Assembly (NCBI GenBank): GCA_030390025.1 | Contig: CM059432.1 | Coordinates: forward strand, 61,630,001-61,694,000 | Source of the DNA: Squalus acanthias | Lineage: Eukaryota | Direction of reading: 5' to 3' | DNA length: 64,000 nucleotides | Part shown: one piece after another, positions 2,286 to 32,915 of the stretch | Layout: each line of letters opens with the position of its first letter | How positions within the stretch are numbered: position 1 is the first letter of the stretch | Position numbers and translations under genes: made by a program | Notes under the pieces: model-generated | Told to the model about the DNA's origin: nothing | The model's database searches: none | The model's input: only the letters and a program-made list of their open reading frames with translations

Positions 2286-2829
2286 TACCTCCTATAATGT
2301 TTGACTGAACGGGGGGAGATTTGATGCATCTCATTGGAAGCAGTTTTCACTCCAATTACATGTTCTGAACTCTCCATAGTTAAAAGTTATCCCAGCAGCT
2401 GTTTACTGTACGGGTTCTAGCTCACCACTGCTTTCTCCCGCCTCTCCCCGTTGTCAATGGCTGCACAAATGGGCGTGCTTTGGAGAGGGCAGTAAGAGGA
2501 GCGACGAGCTTCAAAATGGAAGAGCATGCATCAATTTGGCGTTGCACGCTGATTTGACGTCACGTTCCTGCTAATTAAAACACTTGCCGCGAGCACAGGC
2601 AAAGGCAGCGCTGCTGACCTGCTGAAAATGGCAGCCGTCGCAGGACCCACTGGAAATGAGGTGGCCGCCATTTTTTCACCAAAACGGGCCTTAATGGCCA
2701 ACACGAACACCTCCAATTTCTAGGCCAATTTCTAGGCCAGTATCTCTGCTCTCGCTGCATAGAAAAGAGAGAGAGAGAGAGATAGTGGAACCACTTTGGG
2801 GAAATCCAAAGCCTCTGTCTCAACAATGA
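2286..2829 (+). repeat. ~540-bp segment duplicated at 18582-19113; includes a MITE end (AATTTCTAGGCC) and unique-looking flanks
   Basis: Direct colinear match to 18582-19113, differing mostly by transitions plus a 12-nt local duplication. Confidence 0.9.
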
Positions 2830-2967
2830 CAAATACACACGACTCTAAACCTCAGCAAAGAAAGCTGGATGTTAGAAAAGGGAGGGAGAGCGCTGGCTGG
2901 ATCAGGCAAACAAACGACCAGGGAAAGCTAGGGAGAGAATGGGAATGGTGTAACATGAAAGATGTAC

Positions 2968-4143: not shown

Positions 4144-5019
4144 TGTGTGTCTCAGTAAGGATTCTTCGATCTGATTTGTTAAGGAGACACACCATAGCTT
4201 GCCCTGTTCACACAGGTCCCAGATCACCTGTAGTGGGCGCTGTGCTGTTTTGGCTTTCTAATTATCGTGAGTTCCAGAGCAAAAGCCCACAGAAAGTCTG
4301 TGAGCACGTGTAAGTGTCACGAACGGCTACTCCCGTTTGTTTGCCGCTGACTGCAAAATCTGTCACTTTCTGTTGTGCCCAATCTGTCTGTGTGTACAGT
4401 TGCCCCAAAGCTGTTAAGATGTTTTTAAAGCTACTACCATGTACGACTCTCACGTTTGCAACTTTGTCTGTCTACTCCTCAGTATCAGAGGAAGGTCTGT
4501 ACTGGTACACCAAAAGCAGGTTGAGAGATCAACCCACTCGGAGCCAAATCCAACATTGACACACTAGATAGCTGGTAGAGCTGGAGCAAACTGTTTGTTG
4601 TTACTGGCACACTCAGTTGTAGGCAGGGACTAACATCTCAGTTCTGGGAAGGTGTAATTGCCTCTGGCAGCAAGAATGTTGTGTTGTTTATACTATAGCG
4701 TTGCTCCAATGGTGCTTTTACCATCGGATGTGACCCAATGAGATGGAGGTATGCAATGGGTGATTTAAAGTACAATGCTGTGGCAGAGTAGAGGGAGCTT
4801 TGTTCTTCATCTGGAAGTGAATGAATGCAAAGAAATAAGCAGAATAAATGTTCAATCCTTCTCACTGACAGCCCTCCCATCTATAATTTAAAAAAATAAC
4901 AAAAAGCCATAACCCTCTTTTTAGTAGTGAATTTGCTTTATGATTGCTTGACCGTGCACATATTAACTAGTATATAGCTACATGGGTGAGAAACTTGGAT
5001 CCGAAACTAGTGTCTTAAA

Positions 5020-8000
5020 CTTAAATAAAGGTAATTACAAAGCTTTAAGACACTAAAGTGGACCGGGAAAATAGATTAAAAAGTAAGATGGTACATAAGC
5101 AGTGGCAGACTTTTAAGGAGATATTTCATAACTCTCAACAAAGAAAGACTCTACGAGAAGGATGAACCATCCGTGGCTAACTAAGGAAGTTAAGGAGGGT
5201 ATCAAATTGAAAGAAAAGGCATACAATGTTGCGAAGATTAGTGGTAGGCCAGAAGATTGGGAAATTTTTAGAAACTTGCAAAGGATGACTAAAAAAAATA
5301 AAGAGGGAAAAAATAGATTTAGAGTAAACGAGCAAGAAAGATAAAAACAGACAGTAAGAGCTTCTACAAGTATATAAAAAGGAAGAGAATAGCTCAAGTA
5401 AACGTTGGCCCCTTAGAGGATGAGACTGGGCAATTAATAATGGGAAAAAAGGAAATGGCAGAAACTTTGAACAAATATTTTGTATCTGTCTTCAAGGTAG
5501 AAGACACAAAAAGCATCCCAATAATAGTGGAAAATCAAGGGGCAAAAGGGAGGGAGGAACTTAAAACTATCACTAGAGAAAAAGTACTAGGCAAACTAAT
5601 GGGACTAAAGGCTGACAAGTCCCCTGGACCTGATGGCCTGCATCCTCGGGTCTTAAATGAAGTGGCTGCAGAGATAGTGGATGCGTTGGTTGTAATCTTC
5701 CAAAATTCCCTAGATTCTGGAAAAGTCCCAGCGGATTGGAAAACCACAAATGTAACGCCCCTATTCAAGAAAGGAGGGAGACAAAAAGCAGGAAACTATA
5801 GGCCAGTTAGTCTACATCTGTCATTGGGAAAATACTGGAATCCATTATTAAGGAAGTAGTAGCAGGACATTTAGAAAAAAATAATACAATCAAACAGAGT
5901 CAACATAGTTTTATGAAAGGGAAATCGTATTTGATAAATTTATTAGAGTTCTTTGAGGATGTAACGAGCAGGGTGGATAAAGGGGAACCAGTAGATGTAG
6001 TGTATTTGGATTTTAAAAAGGCATTCGATAAGGTGCCACATTAAAAGAGTTCATGGTTTTGGGGGTAATATATTAGCATGGATAGAGGATTGGCTAACTA
6101 ACAGAAAAAAGAGTCGGGATAAATGGGTCATTTTCAGGTTGGCAAACTGTAACTAGTGGGGTGCCACAGGGATCAGTGCTGGGGCCTCAACTATTTACAA
6201 TCTATATTAATGACTTGGATGAAGGGACCGAGTGTACTGTAGCCAAATTTGCTGACGATACAAAGATAGGTGGGAAAGCAAGTCGTGAGGAGGACACAAA
6301 GGGCGGAATCTTACCTGGAAGGCCGAGTTCGAGGTGGGACTGCTGGTTTTCAGGTTCCAGTCCCGCCCCCAGCGACGTCTGATGAGCTGACGCTATTTTC
6401 CCCTGATTGGCCTTGTTAAGCCCGCCCTGCGGGCTTGCCGGCCAATTAAGGGAAAGCCGATGTCAGATGACGTCAGTTGATGACACTTCATCTGCCGGTT
6501 TTCTTAAAGGCATATGCACCACACTTGTTTGACATATGATTTGACAGTATTTGACAGCATTGAGGTGTTGTCAAACACTGACAATCACTGTACACAGGTG
6601 AGCCCTTTCACCAAGGCTCTCCAATTACTCTCTCCTTAGGATAAAACAGATGGCAGCTGCAGCTGAGATTGCAGAAGCCATCTGTCCCTTCTCCCGATGA
6701 GATGAGCCTACACAAACACTTCACAGCTTGTCACCTGCAGAAACATCTAATCACATTAAAAATTACTTTCCCAACATTTCCTTACCTCTGATACTAACCT
6801 ATGTCCCATTGCATGCTTCACACCACTTCTGCAGCTGTCATCCAAACACCAACAAAACAACAGACCCACAGCACGCCTCACTTACCCTGACGGGGTTCCC
6901 TGATGTCAGGAAGCCCGCAGCAGCAGTCGAAAAATTGGAAAAAGCCTCTTAACTGCCTGTTAACTATCTGTTAACAGGCAGTTAAGTGTCTATAATCCTC
7001 TTCCCGTCGTTGGAGTCAGATCTCTGCGCAAATCGGGGACCCGACTCCCGGGAAGATTGGTTGGAGGTGTGTTGGGAGCGGGTTTGGACCCGCTCCCATT
7101 TTGGGGGATTTTCCCAGCAGACCCGCCTCCTCAGGGCTGGTAAAATCCAGCCCAAAGAGTCTGCAAAGGGATGTAGACAGGTTAAGTGAGTGAGCAAAAA
7201 TTTGGCAGATGGAGTATAATGTGGGAAAATGTGAGGTTATCCACTTTGGTAGGAAGAATAGAAAAGCAAAATATTATTTAAATGGAGAGAGACTACAGAA
7301 TGCTGCGGTACAGAGGGATCTGGAGGTCCTTGTACATGAAACACAAAAAGTTAGCATGCAGGTACAGCAAGTAATTAGGAAGGCAAATGGAATGTTGGCC
7401 TTTATTGCAAGGGGGATGGAGTATAAAAGTAGGAAAATCTTGCTACAACTGTACAGGGCGTTGGTGAGACCACACCTAGAGTACCAGTTTTGGTCTCCTT
7501 ATTTAAGGAGGGATATACTTGCATTGGAGGCAGTTCAGAAAAGGTTCACTAGGTTGATTCCTGGGATGAAGGACTTGTCTTATGAGGAAAGATTGAGCGG
7601 GTTGGGCCTATACTCATTGGAGTTTAGAAGAATGAGAGGTGACCTTATTGAAACATACAAGATTCTGAGGGGGCTTGACAGGGTAGATGCTGAGAGGATG
7701 TTTCCACTCGTGGGGTAATCTAGAACTAGGGCCATAATTTTAGAATAAGGGGTCGCCCATTTAAGATGGAGATGAGGAGAAATTTCTTTCTGAGGGTCGT
7801 GAATCTTTGGAATTCTCTACCCCCGAGAGCTGTGGAGGCTGAGTCATTGAATAAATACAAGGCTGAGATAGACAGATTTTTGAACTACAGGGGAGTCAAG
7901 GGTTATGGGGAACAGGCAGAAAAGTGGAGTTGAGGCCAAGATCAGATCAGCCATGGTCTTATTGAATGGCGGAGCAGGCTCGAGGGGCCGAATGGCCAAC

Positions 8001-8027
8001 TCCTGCTCCTATTTCTTATGTTCTTTA
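5020..8027 (+). mobile_element. 5'-truncated CR1 LINE, split by a MITE
   Basis: Frameshifted ORF2 pieces ([33 protein letters not shown]), 3' hairpin tail and TTCTTATG-type end. Confidence 0.92.
6301..7153. mobile_element. Non-autonomous PIF/Harbinger-type element (853 bp)
   Basis: TIRs GGGCGGAATCTTACC / GGGCTGGATTTTACC and a 3-bp TSD (AAA). Removing it restores the CR1 text GACACAAAGAGTCTG. Confidence 0.85.
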
Positions 8028-8699
8028 CAATGGTATACATCTAATAATGACTAATGCTGAGAATTTTTATGTGTGTGTATCTGTATTAACGGTGTTTGGG
8101 AGTGAAAATGGTCTTCGCTAGAAGCGCTAAATTGGCTCACAGTGAATCGGCAACCTGTCTTACACTACACCTGATTTTCTTTTCCACAATTGAGGCCCTA
8201 ACTGGGCCAGTGTGTCCAATTCTGGGCACCACTCTTTAAGCCTTGGAGAGGGTGCAGAGGAGATTTACTAGAATGGTACCAGGGATGGTGGACTTCAGTT
8301 ATGAGGAGAAGCTGATATTGCTCTTATAAGAACATAAGAACATAAGAAATAGGAGCAGGAGTAGGCCAATTGGCCCCTCGAGCCTGCTCCGCCATTCAAT
8401 AAGATCATGGCTGATCTGATCCTAACCGCCAATCTACTATCACAGAACCATCTCCTGAACCTAACAGAATTGGACACACGAATTAGGAGCAGGATCAGAC
8501 TACATGGCCCCTGGGCCCACTACGCTACCCACAGGGCCATGACAGATCCGAACCTAGACTCATGTCCAAATTCCTGCCCGCTCCCCGTAACCCTTAATTC
8601 CCTTTACTTCTAGGAAACTGTCTATTTCTGTTTTAAATTTATGTAATGATGTAGCTTCTACAGCTTTTTGGGGCAGCATATTCCATGGACCTACCACCC

Positions 8700-11544
8700 T
8701 CTGAGTGAAGTAGTTCCTTCTCATCTCATTTGAAAGAGCAGCCCCTTATTCTAAGACTATGCCCCCTAGTTCTAGTTTCACCCATCATCGGGAACATCCT
8801 CCCTGCATCCACCCGATCCAACCCCTTCACAATCTTATATGTTTCAATAAGAGCGCCTCTCATTCTTCTGAACTCCAATGAGTAGAGTCCTAATCTACCC
8901 AACCTCTCTTCATATGTCCATCCCCTCATCCCCAGGATTAACCGAGTGAACCTTCTTTGTACTGACTCGAGAGCAAGTATGTCTTTTCTTAAGTATGGAC
9001 ACCGAAACTGTATGCAGTATTCCAGGTGCGGTCTCACCAATACCTTGTACAACTGAAGCAATACCTCCCTATTTTTATATTCTATCCCCCTAGCAATGAA
9101 AGCCAACATTCTATTGGCCTTCTTAATCACTTGCTGCACCTGCATACTAACCTTTTGAGTTTCGTGCACCAGGACCCCCAGATCCCTTTGTACTTCAGTA
9201 CTTTCCAGTTTCTTGCCATTAAGATAATAACTTGCTCTACTATTTTTCCTGCCAAAGTGCATAACCTCACACTTTCCAGTATTGTATTCCATCTGCCAAA
9301 TCTCTGCTCACTTACTTCGCCTGTCTATGTCCCCTTGCAGATTTTTTATGTCCTCCTCACTCACTACTTTCCCTCCCATCTTAGTATCATCTGCAAACTT
9401 TGATATGATACACTCGGTCCCCTCCTCCAAATCGTTAATATAGATTGTAAAGAGTTGGGGACCCAGCACTGACCCCTGCGGAACACCACTAGTTACTGAT
9501 TGCCAGTCTGAGAATGAACCATTTATCCCAACTCTCTGCCTTCTGTTAGATAGCCAATCCTCTATCCATGCCAGAATATTACCCCAATCCCGTGATTTTT
9601 TATCTTAAGCAATAATCTTTTGTGTGGCACCTTGTCAAATGCCTTTTGGAAGTCTAAATACACCACATCCACTGGTTCCCCTTTATCCACCCTGTATGTT
9701 ACTTCCTCAAAGAACTCCAGCAAATTTGTCAAACATGACTTCCCCTTCATAAAACCATGCTGACTTTGTCCTATTAAATTATGATTATCCAAATGTCCCG
9801 TTACTGTCTCCTTAATAATAGACTCCAAAATTTTACCTACCACAGATGTTAGGCTAACTGGTCTATAGTTTCCAGCCTTCTGTCTGCTGCCCTTTTTAAA
9901 TAAGGGTGTTACATTAGCAGTTTTCCAGACTGCCGGGATCTTTGCTGAGTCCAGGGAGTTTTGGAAAATTATTACCAATGCATCCACAATCCCTACCGCC
10001 ACTTCCCTCAAGACCCTAGGATGTAAGCCATCAGGTCCAGGTGATTTATCCGCCTTGAGTCCCATTATTTTACCGAGTACCACTTCCTTAGTGATTTTGA
10101 TCGTGTTTAGCTCCTCCCCCCCTATAGCCCCCTGTTTGTCCAGTGTTGGGATATTCTTAGTGTCCCTCTACTGTAAAGACTGATACAAAATATTCATTCA
10201 GTGTATTTGCCATCTCCATATTTCCCACCATTAATTTCCCGGTCTCATCCTCTAAGGGACCAACATTTACTTTAGCCACCCTTTTTCTTTTTATATAACT
10301 ATAAAAACTCTTACTATCTGTTTTTATATTTTTTGCTAATTTACTTTCATAATCTATCTTCCCTTTCTTAATCAATCTTTTTGTTATTTTTTGCTGTCTT
10401 TTAAAGTTTTCCCAATCCTCTATCCTCCCACTAGATTTGGCTACCTTATAAGCCCTTGTTTTTAGTCGAATACTATCCTTAATTTCTTTACTTAGCCACG
10501 GATGACTGTCTTTTCTTTTACACCCTTTTCTTCTCAGTGGAATATATTTTTTTTGGAAGTTGTAAAATAACTCCTTAAATGTACATCACTGATCATGTAT
10601 CGTCTTACCCTTCAATCTATTTTCCCAATCCACTCAAGTCAATTCCGCTCGCATACCTTCATAGTCTCCTTTATTCAAGCTTAGCATGCTTGTTTGAGAT
10701 CCAACCTTCTCACCCTCTAATTGAATATGGAATTCGACCATGTTATGGTCACTCATTCCAAGGGGATCCTTTACTAGGACATTTTTAATTAATCCTGTCT
10801 CGTTACACAGGACCAGATCTAAGGTTGCTTGGCCCCGGTCGGTTCAGTTACATACTGCTCAAGAAACCCATCCCTAATACATTCAATGAACTCATCCTCA
10901 AGGCAGCCCTGTCCAATTTGATTTGTCCAATTAATATGATAGTTAAAATCCCCCATAATTATAGATGTTCCCTTATTACAAGCCTCAACTATTTCCTGAT
11001 TGATACTCCGTCCAACAGAGTTGCAACTGTTCGGAGGCCTATAGACTACGCCCACTAGTGTTTTTTTCCCCTTATTATTCCTTATCTCCACCCAAACTGT
11101 TTCATTATCCTGATCTTTTGACCCAATATCATTTCTCTGTATTACAGTGATTCCTTCCTTTATTAACATAGCCACCCCACCTCCCCTTCCTTCCTGCCTG
11201 TCCTTCCTGATCGTTAAATAACCTGGTATGTTTAATTCCCAGGCATTGTCACCCTGCAGCCATGTTTCTGTAATGGCCACAAGATCATACCCATATGTAG
11301 TTATTTGTGCCATTAACTCGTCTATTTTGTTACGAATGCTACGTGCATTCAGATAGAGAACTTTCAAATATGTTTTGTGACACTTAGTTCCTGCTTTTGC
11401 CCTTTTTATTACTTTACCTTTTACTCCATACCTTCTGCCCCTTCCTGACACACTCTGGTTTTTAATTTCCCCACTGCTACCTAAGTCTATGACCTTCTCT
11501 GTTGTTATTTTTATTATTTGCTCTCTAGGAACCTCCCCCCCCAC
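8700..11544 (-). pseudogene. CR1 ORF2: APE endonuclease and reverse transcriptase, frameshifted
   Basis: YLNARSIRNK, ITETWL, GVVYRPP, MGDFN (10819..11544); YLDFQKAFD (9562..10083); RPHLEYC (8726..9292). Confidence 0.9.
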
Positions 11545-11547
11545 TAG

Positions 11548-12500
11548 TTAGTTTAAAGCCCTCTCTACAGCCCTAGTTATATGATCCGCCAGGACTCTAG
11601 TCCCAGCACTGGCCAAGTGAAGCCCGTCCCAACGGAACAGCTCCCTCCTGCCCCAGTACTGGTGCCAGTGTCCCAGGAAGCAAAACCCATTTCTCCCACA
11701 CCAGTCATTGAGCCACTCATTTAACTCTCTAATTTTATTTGTCCTAGCCAAATTCGCTCGTGCTCAGGTAATAATCCAGAGATTATTACCCTTGAGGTTC
11801 TGTTTTTTAATTTGACCCCTAGCTGCTCATACTCCTTTAACAGAACCGGCTTCCTTGTCCTATCTACGTCGTTTGTACCAACATGGACCACGACAACTGG
11901 ATCCACCCCCTCCCACTGCAAGTTTCTTTCCAGCCCAGAGGAGATGTCCTTAACCCTGGCACCGGGCAGGCAACACAGCCTACGGGACTCTCGCTCTCGG
12001 CTGCAGAGAACTCCATCTATCCCCCTAATAATACTATCCCCTACCACTACAACATTTCTATTTACTCCCCCCTCTTGAATGGCCCCCCATTCCACGGTGC
12101 TGTGACCAGGTTGCTCATCCTCCCTGCAGTCCCTGCTCCTGTCCCCACAGGGAGTAAGAACCTTGAACCTGTTGGACAAGAGCAAGGGCTGCGGCTCCTC
12201 CAACACTACCTCCTGGATCCCCGTACCTGCCTCACTCGTAGTCACACCATCCTGTCCCTGACCATGGGCTACATCTGAATTAATTAACTTCATAGGTGTG
12301 ACCACCTCCTGAAACACAGAGTCCAGGTACTTCTCCCCCTCCCTGATGTGTCGCAGTGTCTGAAGCTCAGACTCCAGCTCATCAACACGGAGCTGGAGTT
12401 CCTGTAGCAGCAAACACTTGTCACAGACGTAATCACCGTGAGCCTCAATGGGGTCCACCGGCTCCCACATCTCGCAACAGTAACACATCACCTGCTCCAT
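11548..12500 (-). pseudogene. CR1 ORF1: Cys-rich Zn finger, coiled coil and SGNH esterase; one frameshift
   Basis: ORFs 11721..12500 and 11548..11751 contain CYCC..CDKC, a leucine zipper, VVGDSIIR, LPGARVKD, HVGTND and DGLHL. Confidence 0.9.
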
Positions 12501-14091
12501 TCTATGTAATTAATTAAAAAAAATTATTGTTAGTTATGGACACTCTCTGCCCGATTATAGATGCAAGTATCCCCTCTAATTATTTGGATTTAAATTAAAT
12601 CAATCCCTCTAAATTACACCAGTTAAATGGTTTACCAACAGTCACTCTGCACCAGAAAGGCCTTATTAACTACAACCCGCAGAGTTAAAGTTTGAAAAGA
12701 ACACCCTACACCCCACTCACCCGAACTCACACTTACCCAAACTCAGCACTCTCTGCTGACTCTGCACTCTCTGCTGACTCAGTGCTTGCTCACACTAGCA
12801 CTAGTCTTTTTATACTGTTTGTTTGTTTACAGCCGAATGAGTCACCCCTGCTGATTGATTAGAAAACTGGTTTCCACTGCCTGCTGTGCCAATTTACTCC
12901 TACTGTAGTGTAACCTTGTTTTACTCTTCTTAAACCAACAGAATCCCAAATATTTAACTTTTCCCCTTCACTTAAACTGCTTAAGTACTCTTATCAAGAA
13001 TGATTTAAAGAGAACTAACAATTAAAGAACTCTCACTTACCCAAACTCAGCACTCTCTGCTGACTTGCACTTCTTAAAGCAGAGAAGGTTAAGGGGAGAT
13101 TTAATACAGATGATTAAAATTATGAAGGGTTTTGATAGTGTAAATAAGAAACTGTTCTACTGGCAGGAGGGTCAGTAACCAGAGGACACAGATTTTAGAG
13201 AATTGGCAAAATGAACCAGAGGGGAGATGAAAGGGTTTTTTTATGCAGCGAGTTGTTGTGACCTGGAATACACAGCCTGAAAGGGTAATGGGAAACAGAT
13301 TCAATAGTAACTTTCAAAAGGAAATTGAATATATACTTGAAAAGGAAAGAAATTGTAGGGCTATGGGGTAAGAGCGAGGGAGTGGAATAATTGGATAGCT
13401 CTTTCGAAGAGCTGGCACAGGCACGGGGGGCTGAATGGCCTCCTTCTGTTCTGCATGAGTCCAGGAAAATAAAATTCACTGAGCCTGTTTTGCGCTACTG
13501 GTGAAAACTAATTTCACCCCCTTAATGTTTTACAGCATATCTTACTTATTCTCTGCTGTATCTCTAAGTGTGTGCATATTAATAAAAAAAATTCTGTAAT
13601 TATACTTATCTTGTATCTATACAGTGCAAGCAATCTGTTATGTATTATATCAAATAGAGATTGTAATACAAAATGCAGGTTTACTATCCAAGTTCTAAAA
13701 GTGCACTATGTTCTTTAAAGTAATGTTGTTGATAGAAGTCCAATTCTAATGTTCTGTTCCTGTAATCCTTTGAGAAAATCCCTCCATTAGTGTCTGCTTA
13801 GCCGAGCTAATCCTATCTGACTACACTTTGTTTTTTAAACCAGCTTCCGGATTCCTTTAAGGCCTTCAATATCAACTCTCTCTGATGATCCGAACAGTTG
13901 AGCAAACTCTCTAGTGTTTTGTTTCCACCTCATGCAGTGGCATTTGGGATACGGTGGTTTATAATGATCCTTTGAGGAGTCACATTCATTTGTGCTGCCC
14001 GAATCATCTGGTGGTATTTAATTGCCAGTGTTCAGAATCTGATCATCTAAACATATGTTCTCAAAACTCTTTCCATTCCCCAATATCTCAT

Positions 14092-14145
14092 CCTCACAGA
14101 TGCTACCTGACCTACTGAGTGATTCCTGCATTTTCTGTTTTTATT
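14092..14145 (+). mobile_element. Short decayed PLE terminal-repeat fragment
   Basis: CACAGATGCTACCTGACCTACTGAGT...CATTTTCTGTTTTTATT matches the PLE 3' ends at 15738-15790 (-) and 31081-31122 (+). Confidence 0.65.
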
Positions 14146-14924
14146 ACCCCACTATCTCATAGTGGGAAGCAACAGTCATTAGAGCCTCCAGAACCTGTAG
14201 TTCTCACACCTAACTTTTGAATTCTTACAGTACAAGTACAGTAGCAGCGATCTCTTTGGTGACAATGAAGGGTAATTGTCAAACAGTCGAGGTAACTTGT
14301 ACAAAATTACTGATTCCTTATTTGAGGACACTGCCGGAGGCCATGTTCTTCCTGCTGTTGTATTATGAACTACTTCAACCAAGCATATATTTTTGGCATC
14401 ATTGTGCTTTTATGTGGACCATTTTATATTTGAACCAGCCTGAATCAGAAATAAAACTTTGTTCACTCTAATATTACTGAAACGCAGCCATGATCATATT
14501 GAATGGCGGAGCAGGCTCGAAGGGCCGAATGGCCTACTCCTGATCCTATTTTTCTGTTTCTGTGTTTCAAACACTGCTGCCAGATCTTTAGGTTTCAAAA
14601 CTCTGTTGATTGTTTTCATCTACCAGTCAATTTTCTTTTGACTTCAAAGACGTTACTTACTGTTGATATTTGAACTGATCTTCTGGAAGCGATTTTTGAC
14701 TTGCTACCACTTCAATTTTGGGCAGTAGAGAGATGGTAAAGGTATGGAGATCCAGCAGTAACTTCGGCAGGACAGTTAAAAAAAACTCCAGAGAAACAAA
14801 AACCGCATAAACACCATTTTTCAGGGGTTTCTGTGGTTCTTCCGCCAAAGTTACAGCAGACAAGCAGGAGAACCTCTGCAGAAATTCACCCTCACAATGT
14901 TGGCCGGATAACCTCCATCCATCA

Positions 14925-15290: not shown

Positions 15291-15737
15291 GTCAATGAGA
15301 AGTTTAGGTGCGCTAAGGCTAGAAAAGGTGGAGACAATCATCAGAGCGCTGGCAAGGGGAGAGGAAACATATTTGAACCAGGGAGTGGAGAAATAATGGC
15401 TAACTTCCATGATCCTATGGGTTGAAGAATTCTGTTATAATGTTGTTGCCCAATCACTGACCCATGTTCCCTTTGAGCACAGTTTTCCCATTGGGAGAGG
15501 AGGAATGTAGAATTTATTCTAATCGGAATCTAGTGTCTGATTCCTAGAAAAAAGAAACAATGAGATATGGATTGGAACCCTAATTCAACGTATGCATCCA
15601 AGGCTACTGTGAAACTGTGAATGTAATTCATTGCATTATACTGGTAGCTGGTGCTGTTAACCCATTCACGTATGTTAATTGTACTAAAAGTTAACATTCT
15701 GAAATCTGTTATATAATACTATCAGAGCTCCCATGGT

Positions 15738-18700
15738 ATAAAAACAGAAAATGCTGGAAATACTCAGCAGGTCAGGCAGCATCTGTGGAGAGATAAAAAG
15801 AGTTAACATTTCAGGTCGATGACCCTTCGTCAGAACTGGAAAAAGTTGGAGATGGAACAGGTTTTTAAGCAAGTGTAGGGGCAGGGAAAGGGGGGAGGGG
15901 AGGAAAGAACAAAAGGGAAGGTCAGTGATAGCATGGAAGGCAGGAGAGATTAAATGACAAAAGGGATGATGGTGCAAGGCAAAAGGAGATGGTAATGGGA
16001 CAAGTTAAGAAACAAAAGATTACTCTAGATGAAGTGTAAATGGCAATGGCAGAATGATCGACAGCTGCCATGTGAGAGAAAACAAAATGAAAAAAAAGAT
16101 GGGGGCAGAGATTATGGTCTGAAGTTGTAAAACTCGATGTTGAGTCCAGAAGGTTGTAAAGTGCCTCATCAAAAGATGAGGTGCTGTTCCTCGAGCTTAC
16201 GTCGAGCTTCATTGGAACAGTGTAAGAGGCCGAGGACGGAGAGGTCAGAGTGGGAGTGGAGCGGAGAATTAAAGTGACAGGCGACCGAAAGCTTGGGGTC
16301 ACCCTTACGGACTGAACGGAGGTGTTCCGCAAAGCGGTCACCCAATCTGTGTTTGGTCTCCCCAATGTACAAGTAAATTGTTGTTTCACCTGGAAGGAGT
16401 GTTTGGGGCCTTGGACAGTGGGAAGGGAGGAGGTAAAAGGGCATGTGTTGCATCTCCTTCGCTTGCACATGAAGGTGCCAGGGGAAGGGGTGTTGTGGGT
16501 GATAGAGGAGTGGACCAGGGTGTCGCTGAGGGAGCGGTCCCTTCGGAATGCTGAAAGGGGAGGTGAGGGGAAGATGTGTTTGGTGGTGGGATCACGCTGG
16601 AGGTGGCGGAAATGGCGGAGGATGATCCGCTGAATGTGGAGGCTGGTGGGGTGAAAGGTGAGGACAAGGGGAACCCTATCATGGTTCCGGGAGGGAGGGG
16701 AAGGGGTGAGAGCAGAAGTGTGGGAAATAGAACGGACACGGTCAAGGGCCGTGTCAACCACAGTGGAGAGGAATCTTCGGTTGAGGAAAAAGGAAGACAC
16801 GTCGGAAGCACTGGTATGGAAGGTGGCATCGCCAGAACTGATGCGGCGGAGACGGAGAAACTGGGAGAATGGAATCGTGTCCTTACAAGAAGTGGGGTGG
16901 GAGGAAGTGTAGTCCAGGTAGCTGTGAGAGTCAGTGGGCTTATAGTGAATGTTTGTCAATAGCCTATCCTCAGAGATGGAGACAGAGAAGTCGAGGAAGG
17001 GAAGGGAAGAGTCGGAGATGGACCATGTGAAGATGAGGGAAGGGCGGAAATTGGAAGCAAAGTGAATGAAATTTTCTAGTTCAGGGCGAGAGCAGGATAC
17101 GGCACTGATACAGTCATCAATGCACCAGAAAAAGAGGTGAGGGAGGGGACCTGAGTAGGACTGGAACAAAGAATGTTCCACATATCCCACGAAAAGGCAG
17201 GCATAGCTAGGACCCATGCGGGTTCCCATAGCAACACCTTTAATTTGGAGGAAGTGAGTGGAGCCAAAGGAGAAGTTGTTCAATGTGAGAACAAGTTCAG
17301 CCAGGCGAAGGAGGGTGGTGGTGGAAGGGGACTGGTTGGGCCTCTGTTCAAGGAAGAAGCGGAGCGCCCTCAGGCCATCCTGGTGGGGGATGGAGGTGTA
17401 GGGGGATTGGACGTCCATAGTGAAAAGGAGACGGTTGGGGCCTGGAAACTGTTAAAGTGGCGGAGAGTGTCGGAAGAGTCACGGATGTAGGTGGGAAGAG
17501 ACTGGACAAGGGGAGAAAAAATAGAGTTGAGATAGGAAGAGATAAGTTCCGTGGGGCAAGAACAGGCTAAAACGATGGGTCTACCAGGGCAGTCCTGTTT
17601 GTGGATCTTGGGAAGGAGGTAGAAGCGGGCTGTGCGGGGTTGGGGAACTATGAGGTTGGCGGCCGTGGAGGGAAGATCTCCAGAGGAGATGAGGTCAGTG
17701 ACAGTCTTGGAAACGGTGGCTTGATGTTCGGTAGTGGGGTCATGGTCCAGGGGGAGGTAGTTGGAGGTGTCGGAGAGTTGGCGTTCAGCCTCCGTACGGT
17801 AGAGGTCAGTTCGCCAAACAACAACAGCGCCACCCTTGTCAGCAGGTTTAATGACAATGTTGGGGTTGAATCTGAGAGAATGGAGTGCTGCAAGTTCAGA
17901 GGGAGGTAGGTTGGAGTGGGTGAGGGGAGCAGAGAAATTGAGACGGCCGATGTCATGCCGCCAGTTTGCAATAAAAAGATCTAGAGAGGTTAAGAAGCCA
18001 GAGGGAGGGGTCCAGGCAGAACAAGAATTCTGAAAATGGGAGAAAGGGTCCGCTGTGCAGGTGGAAGACTGCTGGCCAAAGAAGTGGGCACGGAGATGAA
18101 GGCGACAGAAAAAGAGCTCTGTGTTGTGCCAAGCTCGAAATTCATTGAGGTGGGGGCGTAAAGGGATGAAGCTCAGGCCTTTGCTGAGGACTGATCGTTC
18201 GGGGTCAGAGAGGGGAAGGTCAGAGGGGATAGTGAAAACACGGCAGGGGGTGAGATTGGAAGAAGGGATGGGGTCAGAGGAGAGTGAAGAGGAGGAAGGT
18301 TCCGGGGGGGCGTTGGTGTCCAAGAGTTGTTGAAGCTTGCGATCCTTCACTTCTGAAAGGAAGAAAAAAACTTTTTTGTTAAAGCGCCGGATGAGGCGAA
18401 GGGTGAAATGGAACTGCGGACCAGGACAGCTTTGAGATAGAGTGAGTCGGTGCTGCTGAAGAGAGAGGTCGAGCGTGTTCATGTGGCGACGCATGGCATT
18501 CAGCGTGGATCTCAGGATAGGGCGAGAGCAGTGGTTTGAGGAACGCTGAATATCTCGGTGATATCTGTAATCCTGGGTGGATACCTCCTATAATGTTTGA
18601 CTGAACGGGGGGGGGAGATTTGATGCATCTCATTGGAAGCAGTTTTCACTCCAATTACATGTTCTGAACTCTCCATAGTTAACAGTTATCCCAGCAGCTG

Positions 18701-19233
18701 TTTACTGTACGGGTTCTAGCTTACCACCGCTTTCTCCCGCCTCTCCCCGCTGTCAATGGCTGCACAAATAGGCGTGCTTTGGAGAGGGCGGTAAGAGGAG
18801 CGATGAGCTTCAAAATGGATAAGCGTGCATCAATTTGGCATTGCATGCTGATTGATGTCACATTCCTGCTAATTAAAACACTTGCCGACAGCGCAGGTAA
18901 TGGCAGCGCTGCCAACCTGCCGAAAATGGCAGCCACCGCGGGACCCACTGGTAGTGAGGTGGCCGCCATTTTTTCACCAAAACGGGCCTTAATGGCCAGC
19001 GCAAACACCTCCAATTTGTAGGCCAGTATCTCTGCTCTCGCTGCATAGAAAAGAGAGAGAGGGAGATAGTGGACCCACTTTGGGGAAATCCAATGCTTCT
19101 GTCTCAACAATGAAGGGAAGGGATGAGTCGGAGATGGACCATGTGAAGGTGAGGGAAGGGTGGAAATTGGAAGCAAAGTGAATGCGTTTGGTCTCCCCAA
19201 TGCAGAGGAGCGAAAACAGTCTACTAAATTGTA
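15738..19233 (-). mobile_element. Penelope-like retroelement (Neptune-type) composite insertion with a 14-bp TSD; disrupted RT and GIY-YIG endonuclease
   Basis: KGLSFIP, KPADKGGAVVV, YLLPKIHK, GRPIV, GVAMGTRMGPSYA, YKPTD, CxxxRCxTC and YIGETKHRLGDRFAEH. AGAGCTCCCATGGT occurs at 15724-15737 and 19234-19247. Confidence 0.92.
15801..15837 (-). ncRNA. Minimal type I hammerhead ribozyme motif in the PLE terminal repeat (C>T change in stem III)
   Basis: Minus strand reads AGTT-CTGACGA-A-GGGTC-ATC-GACCT-GAAA-TG-TT-AACT. Confidence 0.7.
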
Positions 19234-20228
19234 AGAGCTCCCATGGTGTTGCTCATGGTGAGACAGTGGACCTGCTGTTTTATAACAGGAACTTTATACC
19301 AAGTAGTGCACAATGTGCTAAAGTGCAATTTTGTGTGTCCCCTTTAAGACCACCAAGTGTAATTGCTGTAGCTTACTGGATAAAATAGAGGCTAACTGTT
19401 CTCACACAGTTCCTCACTTCACCTCCAGGTTCCATTTTGTTTTAAGTGTAAAGCCTGAATTCAGTTAAAAGGTATTTTCTGTTGCCCAAATTTCTCTGTA
19501 CATTGGAAATGATTAGCTCACTTTTTTTGAGTGTGGAACAGAAAGTTGCATGTGTGCCAATGTGACACCAGAAGTGTTGTGGAGGTGTCTCTAATTTTTA
19601 TTAGTATACATTGTGTTAATTTATTATATATTAGAAATATAATTATATTTGATTAAACTAAGAAAAAACAATGATTCTAATTTTCCCCTGAATTAAATCT
19701 GTCCTGCTATCCCAAGTAAACATCTCCACAAGTGGCACTAATCCTTTCTTGCAATCAGTTTTCACTTCCTGCCCAAGCAATTTGGTGGAGACTAACAAAT
19801 TCTCTCCTCAGGGAAAGTGACTGCAAATGTCTCATTTACAAAGTCAAAGTGTTTTGTGTTTGTTTTGTCGGTGAACAGCATTTAAAAAATCCCAAAATGT
19901 ATTTGTGCAAAACTCATTAAGTGTGCAAAATTGGAGTCTGCAAAACTGCAGTCTCCAAGCTTAACAACCAGGGTACATTAGTAAAACATCAGCCTCTCGC
20001 CAACTTAATGGAATGTTGGCACAAAAATAATACAAAGAAGAACACTCTGTAAATACTTTACATGGTGCTCATATCGCTTCTCAAAACAAACACTACTGGA
20101 TACAGAAAGTTCTGGATGTGGAATGTGCTTTTGAATGTTAAAATGTACTTTTTGTAGATTTACATTGAAAAGTGAATATGAACAGTCAGATTAATGTGGA
20201 TTTTGGATAAAATTATGCCAGATTCAGT

Positions 20229-25528: not shown

Positions 25529-27701
25529 GAAACATAGAAACATAGAAGATAGGAGCAGGTGTAGGCCATTCGGCCCCTTGAGCCTGCTCCGCCATTCAAT
25601 GCGATCATGGCTGATCATCCAAATTCAGTACCCTGTCCCTGCTTTCGCCCCATATCCCTTGATTCCTTTAGCCTTAAGAAATATATCTATCTCCTTCTTG
25701 AATATATTTAATGAATTGGCCTCAACTGCCTGATAGAGAATTCCACAGGTTCACCACTCTCTGGGTGAAGAAATTCCTCCTCATCTCAGTCCTAAATGGC
25801 TTACCCCTTATCCTTAGACTCTGACCCCTGGTTCTGGACTCCCCCGCCATCGGGAACATCCTTCCTGCATCTAGTCTGTCTAGTCCTGTTAGAATTTTAT
25901 AAGTTTCAATGAGATCCCCTCTCATTCTTCTAAACTCTAGCGAATACAAGCCCAATCGTCCCAATCTCTCTTCATACGTCATTCCTACCATCCCAGGTAT
26001 CAGTCTGGTGCATCTTCGCTGCACTCCCTCCATGGCAAGAACATCCTTCCTCAGATAAGGCGACCAAAACTGCACACAATACTCAAGGTGTGGTCTCACC
26101 AAGGCCTTGTACAACTGCAGCAAGACATCCTTGCTCCTGTACTCGAATCCTCTCGCTATGAAGGCCAACATACCATTTGCCTTCTTAACCGGCTGCTGCA
26201 CCTGCATGCTTACCTTCAACGACTGGTGCACAAGGACACCCAGGTCTCGCTGCACTTCCCCTTTTCCCAATCTATTGCCGTTCAGATAATAATCTGCCTT
26301 CCTGTTTTTGCCACCAAAGTGGATAACCTCGCATTTATCCACATTATACTGTATCTGCCATGCATCTGCCCAATCACCCAACTTGTCCAAATCATACTGG
26401 AGTTTCTCTGCATCCTCCTCACAACACACACGCCCACCCAGCTTTGTGTCGTCTGCAAACTTGGAGATATTACATCTAGTTCCCTCGTCTAGATCATTAA
26501 TATATATTGGCCCAAAAATTCGGCCGTTCTCGGGTGAGTACTCAGTGCGTACTCACCCGTATTCATTCCCGAAGTGCCGGTTTCCTGCATGCACTGCGCA
26601 TGCGTGGGAAACCGGCACTTCCGGTATGGTGAAGGGGGCGGTTCCTAGGTGAACCGCGTGCGCACTAGAGGCTGCGCGCACGCAGCACACTTAGATTTTT
26701 TTTCAGGTTTCAACGCGAGGGTAAGTATTGAAGATTCTACGCTAGTAAAAAGGAGGCGTAAGACTCCTTTTGAACAAGGTAAGTAGTTAATTAAGTATAA
26801 TTTTAAATTTTTTTCAACAGGTTTATCTTTTTTAGATACTTTAAAGAATGGTAAGTTTATTTTTATAACTTTTAAAAAGTATTTCAATTTTTTCAAAAAT
26901 TAAAATTTTTGTTTAAAGTGGTTAATTTATTTAACTATAGTTATTTTATAAATGTGATGTTTTTTTTAAATTTATTTGAGGTTTAGCTGTTCTTTTGGGG
27001 CCGATTTCAATTCACAGATTTGACAGGTCTCCTGTCAAATCTATGAATGAAAGATGGTCTGCTGCCATTGGCTCTCCATGGCCCACGTGATCCCAGGGGT
27101 CGCATCGCACTAACTGCGCCCCTGGAACACGCAAGCACTGCGCGCCAGCTCTTGGGAGAGGCCCGGGACCCAAAGTTCCTGTGGGCCCAAAACACAACGG
27201 CAGGCGCGGTGGGTAAGAGCGCGCGCGATCCTTACCCCCGCGGCAAGCCGGCCACGCGAATTTCTAGGCCATTGTGAATAACTGGGGTCCTTGGACCGAT
27301 CCCTGCGGTACCCCACTAGTCACTGCCTGCCACTCGGAAAAGGACCTGTTTATTCCAACTCTTTGCTTCCTGTCTGCCAACCAGTTCTCTATCCAAGTCA
27401 GTACCTTACCCCCAATCCCATGTGCTTTAACTTTGCACGCTAATCTCTTATGTGGGACCTTATCGAAAGCCTTCTGAAAGTCCAAATACACCACATCCAC
27501 TGGTTCTCCCTTATCTATTCTACCAGTTACATCCTCAAAAAATTCCAGTAGATTAGTCAAGCACGATTTACCTTTTGTAAATCCATGTTGACTTTGTCCG
27601 ATCCCGTCACTGTTTTCCAAGTGCTCTGCTATTACATCTTTTATAGTGGACTCTAGCATTTTCCCCACTACCAATGTCAGGCTTACCGGTCTATAATTCC
27701 C
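25529..27701 (-). mobile_element. Younger 5'-truncated CR1, split by a MITE
   Basis: ORFs 25722..26429 and 27264..27776 (RT); (TTTCTATG)n tail at 25529-25545. Confidence 0.92.
26509..27270 (+). mobile_element. Young 762-bp CpG-rich Harbinger-type MITE, copy 1
   Basis: Imperfect TIRs GGCCCAAAAATTCG / GGCCTAGAAATTCG and TSD ATT (26506-08, 27271-73). Near-identical inverted copy at 54605-55367. Confidence 0.9.
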
Positions 27702-28604: not shown

Positions 28605-28671
28605 ATGATTGAAGAACGTGGAAGGACAGAAAATACCATGGCAGAAAGAAGACAGTTGTTTGCAGAAATGC
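28605..28671 (+). CDS. DTNA: alpha-dystrobrevin, first coding exon (exon starts 28604; MIEERGRTENTMAERRQLFAEM+C)
   Basis: Polypyrimidine tract plus TAG acceptor (28601-28603), ATG at 28605, GTAAGT donor at 28672. The 67 coding nt translate to a match of the dystrobrevin N-terminus; AERRQLFAEM is alpha-type. Confidence 0.95.
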
Positions 28672-30668
28672 GTAAGTACTTTACATAACGAGTATTTTGT
28701 GGGTAGACTGAATATTGGTTAGCAATCTATATAACGGACAGTTTTTTTTTGAGGGAATGAATTAGCTGGTATTCCTTTTTATGTGGTCTTAACCACATTT
28801 GCATTATTCCCATGCAATTTCATCAGCGATTTAATACTTTCCCTGGCTGTGAAAACCTCTGATCTCTTGCCTTTTTTATTTAATACATAACTCAAGCTTA
28901 CTTTCCTTTTTTAAACAATTATATTCTTTTGGATTTTTTTTTTTAGCCAGCTGGATATCTGTCACGTGTTGAAACACATCACCATTAAGAGCCTTCAATT
29001 CAAGCTAGTGAGAAGTCTAAACCCATATGTAGAGTTTCTGTTGCAATATGAAGTGCGCACTCTCGCCCCGAGAGAAACATCCCATTTACCCAAGTCTTTC
29101 GAGCTTAGCTGCAGGTTGGCAGAACCAACGCTTAAGGTGAGCTAGGGTACTGCTGGAGCTTAACCAGCTAAAGCTGAAGTAGATCACTGATAAACTTTCC
29201 ACTGCAAGTTCAGCTAGGAAAATTTGCTGCTGCGTTTATAAAACATTAAAATTTTGGAGAAGAAACTCTAAATGCTTTATTATAAATGCTGCAAGATCTG
29301 GATCATGAACGGATAATATACAGAACAAGAGCAAAGCTTCTGTCACCTATTGTTAATCCCTCCCTTAATTTGTGGGATTGCCTCCAATAGCAAGTGCTTG
29401 CCACTACAGGCAACTCACAGTGTAAATGATTAAACACCAGTGCTGTTGACACCAAAGGTAAACGACAGCCAGCACTGGCACTTGTCAGTGAGTGTATTGT
29501 TTTGATTCTAGCTGCCTTTACAAGCTAACAATGTGCTTTTGGCATTGCTACCCTGTACAGACCTTTAAAGAAGCTCATCAGCCAAAAGAACAAAGTCGTG
29601 AATGTGACTTTGCAGTAACTGCAAATTTACAAATCTTGTCCATGTTTAATTGCTGAATCCTGCAGTATTGATGGGTTGACATGTTACAGAACCACTTCCA
29701 TTGGAAGAGGGCATAAAATATGTTAAAACAGATTTAGCTACTGAGATTTTATTTTCTAAATTTCTATTTAATTTCTTCATCTTTGCTTCCCTTTTATCAG
29801 GTCCCCTCCCCTCCCCTCCTTATAAGAGCACAGATGCAAAGGAATGAAGGAGAAGCATACAATTGCATAATGTAACTTATATTAGGTCTATACATTGACA
29901 TTCCAAAAATATTTACATTGCATTTCTAATATTAACGCAGGTTGATGCACTGAATATATGAATTTGACTGCATGATGTATTTTCTCTGAGGAAAAATAAT
30001 CCTTTTCTAATTTTAAACAGGACTGCTTAGTTCTACATTCTATTCAATTTACATATTTTCTCCTGTCTACTTACAAGACTTTCTTACAAATAATTTTACA
30101 ACCATGTTTAAATCATATCTTTATTACTGATTAATAGAGTAAAGCTTTCAGCGCTGCATATGGTCTCATTGTACACTATGTTGGCATACAACATAGTGGA
30201 AGGACTCAGGTTTACATCCTTGATTCCAAAGTTTCCAGGCCTGAGTATGTCAACAGGAAAAGGGGCCAGCCAGTGGTGAGGCCCATTCCCTAAAAAGGTG
30301 GCACAAAAGATTGAAGAGAAGTTTGCCTGGACAGTTCTGAAGTGTTTCCTACCAGGCATTTCCAGAGACACATTGACACGATTCAGAGACAGAGCCAAGA
30401 ACTTGAAAGATAAGGGCTGGAAAGTTGTCTTTGTTGGATTATCGCTAGTCTTCTGTAAAGACCCATTGAATACAATTACGGGATCAAATGAATACCTGGC
30501 AAATGGTGTTAGATTTATGTATAAATTCCCTAGATTCTAGAACAGTCCCCAAGGATTGGAAGGTAGCAAACATAACCCTGCTATTTAAGAAAGGAGGAAG
30601 AGAAAAAACAAGGAACTACAGGCTAGTTAGCCTGACATCAGTAGTAGGCAAAATGCTAGAATCTATTA

Positions 30669-31155
30669 AGCGGGGTGGGAGGAAGTGTAGTCCAGGTAGC
30701 TGTGGGAGTCAGTGGGCTTGTAGTGAATGCTTGTCAATAACTTATCCCCAGAGATGGAGACAGAAAAGTCGAGGAAGGGAAGGGAAGGGAAGAGTCGGAG
30801 ATGGACCATGTGAAGGTGAGGGAAGGGTGGAAACTGGAAGCAAAGTGAATGAAATTTGTTTCTTAACCTGTCCCATTACCATCTCCTTTTGCCTTGAATA
30901 TCTCTTAATGTCTCTTAACCTCTCCTGCCTTCTATCCTATCACAGACCTTCCCTTTTGTTCTTTCATCCCCTCCCCCTTTCCCAGCTCCTACACTTGCTT
31001 AAAAATCTGTTCCATTTGCTGCTTTTTTCCAGTTCTGACGAAAGGTCATCGACCTGAAACGTTAACTCTGTTTCTCTCTTCACAGATACCTGTTGAGTAT
31101 CTCCAGCATTTTCTGTTTTTATTTCAGATTTCCAGCATCTGCAGTATTTTTTTTG
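30669..31155. mobile_element. Short PLE insertion: inverted RT fragment (30669-30857, -) joined to a terminal repeat (30858-31155, +)
   Basis: Matches ~16890-17074 directly and ~15738-16012 as reverse complement. Flanked by TGCTAGAATCTATTA (30654-68) and TGCTCAAATCTATTA (31156-70). Confidence 0.85.
31031..31067 (+). ncRNA. Minimal type I hammerhead ribozyme, intact core, sense to DTNA
   Basis: AGTT-CTGACGA-A-AGGTC-ATC-GACCT-GAAA-CG-TT-AACT: CUGANGA and GAAA boxes, 5-bp stem II, palindromic AACGTT in place of stem III, GUU cleavage triplet. Confidence 0.78.
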
Positions 31156-32915
31156 TGCTCAAATCTATTATTAGGGACATGGTAACAGGGCACTTAGAAA
31201 ATCATAATATGATTAGGCAGAGTCAACATGGTTTTATGAAAGGGAAATCGTGTTTGACAAATCTGTTAAAGTTTTTTGAAGATGTAACTAGTAGGATGGA
31301 TAAGGGGGAACCAGTGGATGTAGTGTATTTGGATTTTCAAAACACATTCAATAAGGTGCCACACAAGAGGTTATTGCACAAAATTAGGACTCATGGTATT
31401 GGGGGTAATATATTAGCATGGATTGAGAATTGGTTAATGGACAGAAAACAGAGAGTAGGAATAAACAGGACTTTTTCAGGTTGGCAGGCTGTAACTAGCG
31501 GGGTGCTGTAACTAGCGGGGTACCGCAAGGATCAGTGCTTGGGCCTCAGCTATTTACAATCTATATTAATGACTTCGATGAAGGGACTGGGTGTAACGTA
31601 TCCAAGTTTGCTGATGATACAAAGTTAGGTGGGAAAGTAAGCTGTGAGGAGGATGCAAAGAGGCTGCAGAGAGATACAGACAGGTTGACCAAGTGGGCAA
31701 GAACATGGCAAATCGAATACAATGTGGGAAAGTGTGAAGTTATCCACTTTGGTAGGAAAAACAAAAATGCAGAATATTTTTTGAATGGAGAGACTGGGAA
31801 ATGTTTGCACTCAGAGGGACATGGGTGTCCTTGTACATGAATCACAGAAAGTTAACATACAGGTACAGCAAGCAATTAGGAAAGCAAATGGTATGTTAGC
31901 TTTTGTTACAAAGGGATTAGAGTATAAGAGTAAAGAAGTCTTACTACAATTATACAGGGCATGGGTGAGGCCACACCTGGAGTACTGTGTATAGTTCTGG
32001 TCTCCTTACCTAAGGAAAGACATACTTGCCTTAGAGGGAGTGCAGTGAAGGTTCACTGGACTGGTTCCTGGGATGAGGGGATTGCCCTATGAGGAGAGAT
32101 TGAGTAGACTAGGCCTATATTCCTTAGAGTTTAGAAGAATGAGAGGTGATCTAATTGAAACATATAAAATTCTTAAGGGGCTTGACAGGGTTAATGCTGG
32201 GAAAATGTTTCCCCTGGCTGGGGAATCTAGAACACGGGGCCACAGTCACAGAATGAGGGGTAGGCCATTTAGGATTGAGATGAGGAGAAATTTCTTCTCT
32301 CAAAGAGTTATGAATCTTTGGAATTCTCTACCCCAGAGAGCTGTGGGTGCTCAGTCGTTGAGTATATTCAAGACAGAGGTCGATAAATTTTTGGGAACAA
32401 CGGGATTTAAGGGCTATGGGATTGTGCGGGAAGGTGGAGTTGAGGTAGAAGATCAGCCATGATCTTGTTCGGAGCAGACTTGAGGGGCCAAATGGCCTAC
32501 TCCTGCTCCTATTTCATATGTTCATATGTTCATATAACTGGAACTGTTTTAAAAGAAGGTAAACAAGAGAAATGGACTTAAAGTTTAGCAGAGCTTGGAG
32601 AGTGGTCAACAGGATGGTAAGAATAACATAAAAGCAGCCAGAATCAAACGATCCAGAAGGGTAGGAAAGACATCTGCAATGGAATAAGTTAATGAGATTT
32701 TGAAAATTAAGGAACGTAAATTGATATTCTAGGATAAGACACAAAATTAAAGTGTTCAGTTGAGTCTCCATACAGGCAAAGGACATGATTAACAATAGGA
32801 TAGTAAAAGAATGATAATTTATTACATGATATAAAGATAATACTTTAATAATGGGTGACTTTATTCAACTGTTAATTCCTTAAACAATGTGGTACAGGAT
32901 TGCTTTTTGACCCAA

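Follow-up and report, generated by a model that had tools for sequence, protein, structure and literature searches.

Penelope-like elements (PLEs) of the Neptune/Nematis type have, according to the accessible text of the reports on them, one ORF with a reverse transcriptase (RT), a CX2-5CxxC linker and, at the C terminus, a GIY-YIG domain, and optionally a 30-40-nt tail that results from two RT start sites (PMC8557442, PMC11167929). Partial tandems are the usual layout of PLE copies (PMC8557442). A purified PLE protein extends both target strands, and the accessible part of that study does not report template jumping onto host templates (PMC11167929). For L1 insertions in human cells, templated host DNA and same-orientation template switches have been described (10.1101/2024.08.27.596794, PMC11702581, PMC10191854).

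The locus studied here holds, within one perfect 14-bp target-site duplication (TSD), a PLE body, a copy of DNA from elsewhere in the window (the whole 64-kb stretch that was analysed), an RT piece and a GIY-YIG piece, in this order:

15724-15737, no strand: left TSD, AGAGCTCCCATGGT; 14/14 match to 19234-19247
15738-18581, - strand: PLE body, from tblastn of relatives and tail comparison
16370-16371, - strand: 52-nt deletion in the GIY-YIG coding region, at the same offset against P0002, P0004 and P0017
18582-19024, + strand: copied segment part 1, end of a high-copy repeat, 443 bases, from contig depth and terminal motif
19025-19113, + strand: copied segment part 2, low-copy flank, 89 bases, 85/89 identity to 2739-2829
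19114-19183, - strand: PLE RT piece, 70 nt, oriented like the body, 70/73 identity to 16996-17068
19184-19233, - strand: PLE GIY-YIG piece, 50 nt, from its translation and the relatives' spacer
19234-19247, no strand: right TSD, 14/14 match to the left copy, with bridging contigs
2286-2829, + strand: donor, the same repeat end and flank, 544 bp, from alignment to the copied segment

The sequence AGAGCTCCCATGGT was found twice only in the window, at the two ends of the insertion, and in a chance test 2 of 2984 random pairs of 56-bp stretches shared a stretch of at least 14 letters. An earlier note on this DNA had described the TSD as well as the order and orientation of the four parts, and both were recovered. 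A simple deletion product of one PLE copy was rejected, because the RT-then-GIY-YIG order is wrong for one unit. Microhomology of 1-3 nt is present at all junctions: the inner ones share 1, 2 and 2 bases (T at 18582, GA at 19112-19113 and TG at 19183-19184) and the target about 3. The first 3 bases of the right TSD likely double as microhomology with the PLE, and the conserved Ser codon of the GIY-YIG piece is supplied in frame by TSD bases. The GIY-YIG piece, TSD and flank are joined by contigs of runs X2 and X5 that span 19185-19796; among the contigs listed, none bridges 18581/18582 or 19113/19114.

The ORF of the body is nearly whole, encoding an RT, a Cys linker and, at the C terminus, a GIY-YIG domain, and is disrupted by a 7-nt frameshift near 17440, the 52-nt deletion and stops. 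In tblastn, relatives with RVT_1 and GIY-YIG covered 18479-16130 collinearly at 42-69% identity; the disrupted frames of the window alone gave RVT_1 only (E 0.018, below the cut-off). The body contains C-K-R-R-R-C-N-T-C, which corresponds to the CX2-5CxxC motif of the RT-EN linker found in 84 of the 120 listed relatives. Both residues of the CCHH motif Cys pair between GIY and YIG are present in relatives; the Cys-bearing spacer is deleted in the body and one Cys of the motif survives in the terminal GIY-YIG piece. The predicted protein places the element among the endonuclease-bearing PLEs, with RT followed by a C-terminal GIY-YIG in a single ORF. When three copies were compared, the focal copy and that at 14095-14144 ended at the identical inner base. 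The copy at 30669-31161, which is 5'-inverted and has a 9-bp TSD, carries a 39-nt tail (31123-31161) that is missing from the focal body. This PLE family is very abundant. A search for a pseudo-LTR or partial tandem arrangement found no second PLE 3' end inside the TSD, and 15600-19400 gave no Rfam match up to E 1; minimal PLE hammerheads perhaps fall outside these models.

The 532 bases of the copied segment align to 2286-2829 over 529 columns, 35 of which are substitutions, with gaps of 3, 1, 12 and 2 bases, so that the copy claimed earlier is an inexact one. Over 18582-19031 contigs from 4/4 runs pile up to a summed depth of 910-14,348 per bin, compared with 3.4-15.5 in the single-copy right flank and 8-40 in the low-copy bin 19032-19076, values that give an order-of-magnitude contrast and no copy number. 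Depth in the bin 18582-18626 is raised artificially by PLE contigs that stop at 18582; at 18605-18608 it is 279-1,096. Judged by depth and terminal motif, 443 of the 532 copied bases form the end of a non-coding high-copy repeat, which is probably Harbinger-type, going by the terminal repeat and 3-bp TSD, and only 89 are low-copy. The repeat ends in a 12-mer that is also found at the ends of two MITEs in the window, which carry ATT and TAT duplications. In the donor the terminal motif has a 12-bp tandem copy, absent from the copied segment, and the other end of the donor repeat was not found in a search allowing up to 2 mismatches. The MITE end with unique-looking flanks of the earlier note holds for the right flank, which is low-copy, and fails for the left one, which is high-copy. 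That the segment is not a whole transposon unit was borne out, because it spans a transposon end into low-copy flank; a complete transposon was rejected, there being one terminal motif only, 89 bases inside the right end. It was also rejected as a part of the PLE consensus, since PLE contigs past 18582 and before 19112 carry other letters.

The match of the low-copy flank to 2739-2829 (85 of 89 bases) is accompanied by minority bases in the repeat: at 10 of 19 listed sites in 18582-19024 that depart from the family majority, the donor has the copy's letter, and the majority share at these 10 sites reaches 0.93-0.98. The 89 low-copy bases and the 10 shared minority bases support the proposal that 2286-2829, or its direct ancestor, was the source from which the segment was copied. 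The donor sequence runs on at both ends, whereas PLE sequence cuts off the copy on either side. The donor lies 12.9-13.4 kb from the target site; the 16 kb given in the earlier note is the present copy-to-copy distance (16.3 kb). As the contig sets amount to 2.0-4.5 Gb, a donor 13 kb off is not ascribed to chance. It might be argued that repeat end and flank form a low-copy composite copied from another locus, with 2286-2829 merely a sister copy, and the depth in run X5 at 19045 (54.1, with about 12-20 for single contigs) allows a third copy. Yet overlapping contig ends inflate summed depth, position 19062 occurs in two versions in run X2, each with roughly the depth of one locus (the donor letter accounts for 6.7 of 12.7), and it would be coincidental for a sister copy to lie 13 kb from the target; this source is quite improbable. 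The same two letters at 19062 bear on the assembly. PLE insertions are difficult to assemble, as the accessible text of PMC8557442 states, and the two inner junctions are unbridged among the contigs listed, but an artefact is hardly credible given both letters in run X2, the contigs of two runs bridging GIY-YIG piece, TSD and flank, and the 35 donor/copy differences (18 at CpG positions), which are spread over both copies.

The identity of the RT piece to the body at 16996-17068 (70/73) includes the shared junction bases. The deletion in the body is joined at a 3-nt repeat, has an identical 52-nt offset against the three relatives listed above and leaves the body without a 17-residue spacer that 75 of 81 relatives have. 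Most of the deleted stretch is held by the GIY-YIG piece, which has a 16-nt gap of its own and translates as S-Y-N-L-V-D-C-F-R and then, in a second frame, as L-L-C-I-G-E-T-K-R, matching the relatives' spacer. This implies that the piece was not copied from the body as it is now. Its start lies 1-7 nt from the edge of the body deletion, for which a post hoc simulation gave a chance of 0.9-4.2%. The 16-nt gap seems to have arisen later, in lineage A, because the contigs of two related species, organisms B and C, begin at 19209. If so, the locus is subject to small post-insertion deletions, and the body's 52-nt deletion may likewise be a late one.

At non-CpG sites donor and copy differ by 17/475 (3.6%, 95% interval 2.1-5.7). 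RT piece and body differ by 2/69 (2.9%), body and second PLE copy by 9/177 (5.1%). The contig comparison covered 18447-19796 and gave 17/573 and 19/576 differences between the right flank and organisms B and C, respectively. Within these wide intervals the donor-copy divergence fits the age of the insertion and is compatible with a later event. Along the segment divergence appears a little uneven for one event, with 1 differing site in the left 135 bases versus 12 of 255 non-CpG sites in its middle part. The right junction of the insertion, not an empty site, seems to be present in organisms B and C, and in each a single contig is seen across the low-copy flank (at depths of 7.67 and 12.8, roughly that of one locus). 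These ages allow a reading in which a canonical partial tandem was inserted first (body, truncated unit ending in RT, short GIY-YIG piece), after which a break led to the loss of about 1.4 kb spanning the tandem junction and was patched by host repair with a copy of the donor; the RT piece would then be a remnant and not the product of a jump. Partial tandems are usual in PLEs (PMC8557442, accessible text), one jump suffices at insertion, the flank is a single contig in each of organisms B and C, and the donor-copy interval overlaps the A-B/C flank divergence of 3.0-3.3%. However, two rare events are required at one locus and the point estimate of donor-copy divergence is not under the species divergence. 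Moreover, the alignment of organism C's flank contig breaks off at 19093, and the next base is a donor/copy difference; by contig logic this is a weak hint at two versions in this organism. Later repair is considered unlikely, though a serious contender.

The capture probably took place during insertion; that it was also the work of the PLE RT falls slightly short of an even chance. The reading that we prefer, with a probability of roughly 0.45, is that PLE body, donor copy and two out-of-order self pieces arose by repeated template switching in one insertion, probably driven by the element's own RT. The GIY-YIG nuclease would have cut both strands 14 bp apart, as suggested by the TSD and the known biology of PLEs, and the RT would have begun at the inner start site of the two that the element possesses. 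Each junction would represent a jump to a new nearby single-stranded template, one of which would be the locus 13 kb off, and the last template might, more tentatively, have been the element part skipped in the body. The 1-3-nt microhomology at all junctions agrees with template switching; R2 RT jumps involve 1-2-nt pairing. A first strand made from left to right would need - strand templates (PLE RNA, donor DNA or antisense RNA), and synthesis from right to left on the bottom target strand would need + strand templates (new cDNA, donor DNA or + strand host RNA). The earlier deduction of a - strand template that excluded DTNA pre-mRNA does not follow, since extension of the bottom target strand on + strand templates gives the same product.

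A host polymerase could have acted in a single event as well, if the cDNA or target end had invaded a nearby duplex at microhomology, been extended by 544 bases and returned. Synthesis-dependent strand annealing or microhomology-mediated switching would give such a product, and the model is cited, in the accessible text, for L1 templated insertions (10.1101/2024.08.27.596794). It agrees equally well with all the junctions and makes donor RNA unnecessary; the donor lies 26 kb upstream of the host gene's first coding exon. Among the runs listed for 18560-19900 none is of RNA, which speaks neither for nor against transcription. The L1 cases of that study, on the other hand, are described as typically <250 bp and lying beside the site, whereas here 544 bp came from 13 kb, and the two further jumps onto PLE sequence point to a template still in the RT complex. 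A host polymerase is considered rather unlikely.

Beyond repeated template switching, the PLE complex might scavenge nearby single-stranded nucleic acid, such as its own skipped template loop and nascent host RNA, an idea that we regard as doubtful. If it were true, the match between deletion and terminal piece would be a fossil of the reaction, and local duplications in sharks would repeatedly result from PLE-driven copying over kilobases. The local duplication mechanism proposed in the earlier note goes too far, one event being insufficient for a general mechanism. The locus itself is probably inert, a duplication made up largely of transposon DNA that shows no sign of function, because transposon sequence accounts for 83% of its cargo and the cargo is situated upstream of the host gene's first coding exon. 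The steps that finish a PLE insertion after the first cDNA strand are left open in the accessible text of PMC11167929, and an identifiable cis donor together with a piece complementing the body's own deletion provides a sharp test of this completion. Orthologous alleles could date each junction, and a survey of the family could tell whether captures follow transcription.

A search by title and abstract start, with most subscription papers outside it, found no paper on PLE template jumping with local capture, and the accessible text of PMC9977147 and PMC13174262 contains no closer case. Similar captures have already been described for human LINE-1, and rotifer Penelopes are known to capture host DNA. 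As in L1 templated insertions, a TSD-flanked retroelement holds non-element sequence copied from near the site, and as in L1 chimeras, same-orientation parts are read as template switches (one nearby expressed gene was co-inserted there). Here, in contrast, the element is a PLE, the event is germline and old, the capture is followed by two more element pieces, and 544 bp were taken from a site 13 kb off, compared with lengths described as typically <250 bp and distances within 15 bp in the 22 L1 cases. In the rotifer Adineta vaga, unrelated host sequence and Penelope likewise share one TSD, with 5'-junction microhomology and microhomology-mediated internal deletions; its cargo lies between terminal repeats and is read, in the accessible text, as mobilisation in trans (PMC3846280). 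In the present insertion the cargo is located between coding pieces, at the ORF's 5' end, and its donor is in cis and identifiable. With the Neptune/Nematis PLEs it shares the RT-linker-GIY-YIG ORF, the optional tail and the 5'-truncated and inverted copies. Their 5' structure, as described in the accessible text, is usually either a partial tandem in direct orientation or a truncated copy in inverted orientation (PMC8557442, PMC11167929), whereas that of the insertion studied here is a non-collinear direct mosaic with foreign DNA.

The 14-mer AGAGCTCCCATGGT is present at 15724-15737 and 19234-19247, and a search of the whole window revealed no third occurrence. As a control for this match, 2984 pairs of 56-bp stretches were drawn at random, and two of them had at least 14 letters in common. 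The earlier note had claimed that this target-site duplication (TSD) brackets four parts in order, which was borne out by the two occurrences of the 14-mer and by the sequence of the 3,496 bases that they enclose:

15724-15737, first TSD copy
15738-18581, - strand, retroelement body, a Penelope-like element (PLE)
18582-19113, + strand, direct copy of 2286-2829 (the donor)
19114-19183, - strand, piece from the RT region of the body, 70/73 letters identical to 16996-17068
19184-19233, - strand, piece from the endonuclease (GIY-YIG) region, last of the four enclosed parts
19234-19247, second TSD copy

This arrangement is tentatively ascribed, with a probability of about 0.45, to serial template switching within one insertion, probably by the RT of the element itself.

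The main frame of the PLE has 551 relatives among 8,000 candidates. The best named ones, among the matches listed (best 120 of 551), are from sharks and rays, with 60-73% identity. RVT_1 and GIY-YIG are present in two full-length relatives, both collinear with the focal body. The body has a CX2-5CxxC linker, a motif that PMC8557442 assigns to the Neptune and Nematis clades. The 3' ends of three PLE copies in the window comprise one with a 39-nt tail and two with a common inner stop base. This matches the pair of RT start sites reported for an anole PLE (PMC11167929). The second copy (30660-31170; 9-bp TSD, 5'-inverted, 39-nt tail) sits within a CR1-like LINE. In body-equivalent coordinates, its RT arm stops at 17074 and the focal RT piece at 17068, six bases apart; a common stop or break site is possible, from two cases only. 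A 50-bp PLE 3' end at 14095-14144 (within 14077-14160), with an imperfect target duplication of ~17 bp, stops at the inner base where the focal copy stops too.

Contigs of four public runs were aligned to 18447-19796 at 82% likeness: two of organism A, one of which may come from the window's own sample, and one each of the related species B and C. Summed contig depth per bin reached 910-14,348 across 18582-19031, fell to 8-40 across 19032-19076 and was 3.4-15.5 in the distal right flank. Therefore, what had been taken for a unique left flank of the segment belongs to a high-copy repeat. This repeat terminates at 19024 in a 12-mer found likewise at the ends of two MITEs in the window, both with 3-bp duplications; repeat and MITEs are putatively of Harbinger type. 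The two MITEs belong to one family and lie at 26509-27270 and 54605-55367 in opposite orientation (~95% identical, duplications ATT and TAT). Elsewhere, a 2-kb tandem array occupies 43938-46019 (shifted copies ~90% identical), and inverted repeats of 113 bp with 98% identity (40993-41105 and 42316-42427) flank a 1.4-kb element akin to 50747-51911.

Donor and copy differ in 35 of 529 columns, 18 of the 35 at CpG positions, with alignment gaps of 3, 1, 12 and 2 bases. The copy is tied to the donor by the 89-base low-copy flank (19025-19113 against 2739-2829), 85/89 identical, and by common minority letters: of 19 listed sites in 18582-19024 at which copy and family majority have different letters, 10 have the copy's letter in the donor and 9 that of the majority. 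A minor repeat subfamily could account for the common letters, but not for the flank. A third copy of the repeat-end/flank junction may exist, which a depth of 54.1 at 19045 in run X5 of organism A would allow, whereas run X2 of the same organism has two versions at 19062 of about equal depth. Because donor sequence continues past both ends and the copy is cut on both sides by PLE sequence, copying went from 2286-2829 to 18582-19113. The distance of 16 kb reported earlier holds for the present (16.3 kb), but at insertion donor and target were 12.9-13.4 kb apart. The donor repeat end (2715-2738) has its 12-bp terminal motif twice in tandem. The copy has a single motif, and the doubling is therefore likely to postdate copying.

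The body lacks 52 nt of the GIY-YIG region at 16370/16371, with equal offset against three relatives; this was not remarked upon in the earlier note. The 17-residue spacer absent from the body is present in 75 of 81 motif-bearing relatives (best 120 of 551). The terminal GIY-YIG piece encodes the deleted stretch and begins 1-7 nt from the deletion edge, which indicates that it is not templated by the body in its present form. In a simulation devised post hoc, a piece end that near a deletion edge arose by chance in 0.9-4.2%, and a piece covering the gap in 2.4%. The RT might have skipped a loop of its own RNA, the surviving loop serving as last template. Alternatively, the bottom target strand might have annealed to the cDNA at the deleted stretch and then wandered, and its own second-strand synthesis might later have been blocked by it there. 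The terminal piece has a 16-nt gap of its own, apparently a later change confined to lineage A. The region may therefore simply be deletion-prone, which counts against a link between deletion and terminal piece.

The PLE's own continuation at the junctions was read from loose ends of PLE contigs:

body/segment, shared letter T
segment/RT piece, shared letters GA
RT piece/GIY-YIG piece, shared letters TG

At the target junction, the first three TSD bases provide in frame a Ser codon placed as in relatives, so that about three letters are probably common to PLE and target at the GIY-YIG piece/TSD junction. R2 RT jumps templates via 1-2-nt pairing (PMC8857657). PLE transcripts carry several tandem units, and the PLE protein extends both cut strands (PMC11167929). 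These three properties would favour the RT as copier. Copying of the donor by a host polymerase within the one insertion event is considered improbable. If the RT had a tandem transcript as template, all of the jumps from PLE to PLE might have been skips in the forward direction. The exclusion of host pre-mRNA as template, claimed previously, is valid only if the + strand was made first; strand order is not decided by the sequence. The host gene, presumably alpha-dystrobrevin, is on the + strand, with its first coding exon (28605-28670) and an EF-hand_2 exon (58897-58977) 30 kb apart. Donor and insertion are both upstream of the first coding exon, so that either may lie outside the transcript.

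Both runs of organism A gave contigs across 19185-19796, with 4-5 letters different. In B and C the contigs cover 19209-19796 and start 25 letters within the GIY-YIG piece; 17/573 letters differ in B and 19/576 in C. As this overlap is below the bridge threshold of 31 letters, the insertion is likely, short of proof, to be common to A, B and C. Non-CpG divergence was 3.6% (2.1-5.7) between donor and copy, 2.9% (0.4-10.1) between RT piece and body and 5.1% (2.4-9.4) between body and second PLE copy. These values are compatible with a single old event that took place around the split of A from B and C or earlier, and their spread would also allow a somewhat later capture. The latter, in which a canonical partial tandem suffered a deletion that was patched with donor DNA, is considered rather unlikely. 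The low-copy flank is covered by a single contig each in B and C; of all results this one weighs most against a single event, or at least makes it uncertain.

In a literature search that covered subscription journals thinly, no paper turned up on a PLE whose coding-region junction carries DNA from a cis donor that could be identified. The locus is a real insertion accident of a type already known, probably one old event, and there is no sign of a function. L1 insertions are reported to duplicate near-site host DNA in 22 tumour cases (10.1101/2024.08.27.596794) and in three experimental clones (PMC11702581), and one nearby transcript was co-inserted with L1 (PMC10191854). In Adineta vaga, as PMC3846280 describes, host DNA was captured by Penelope inside a TSD.
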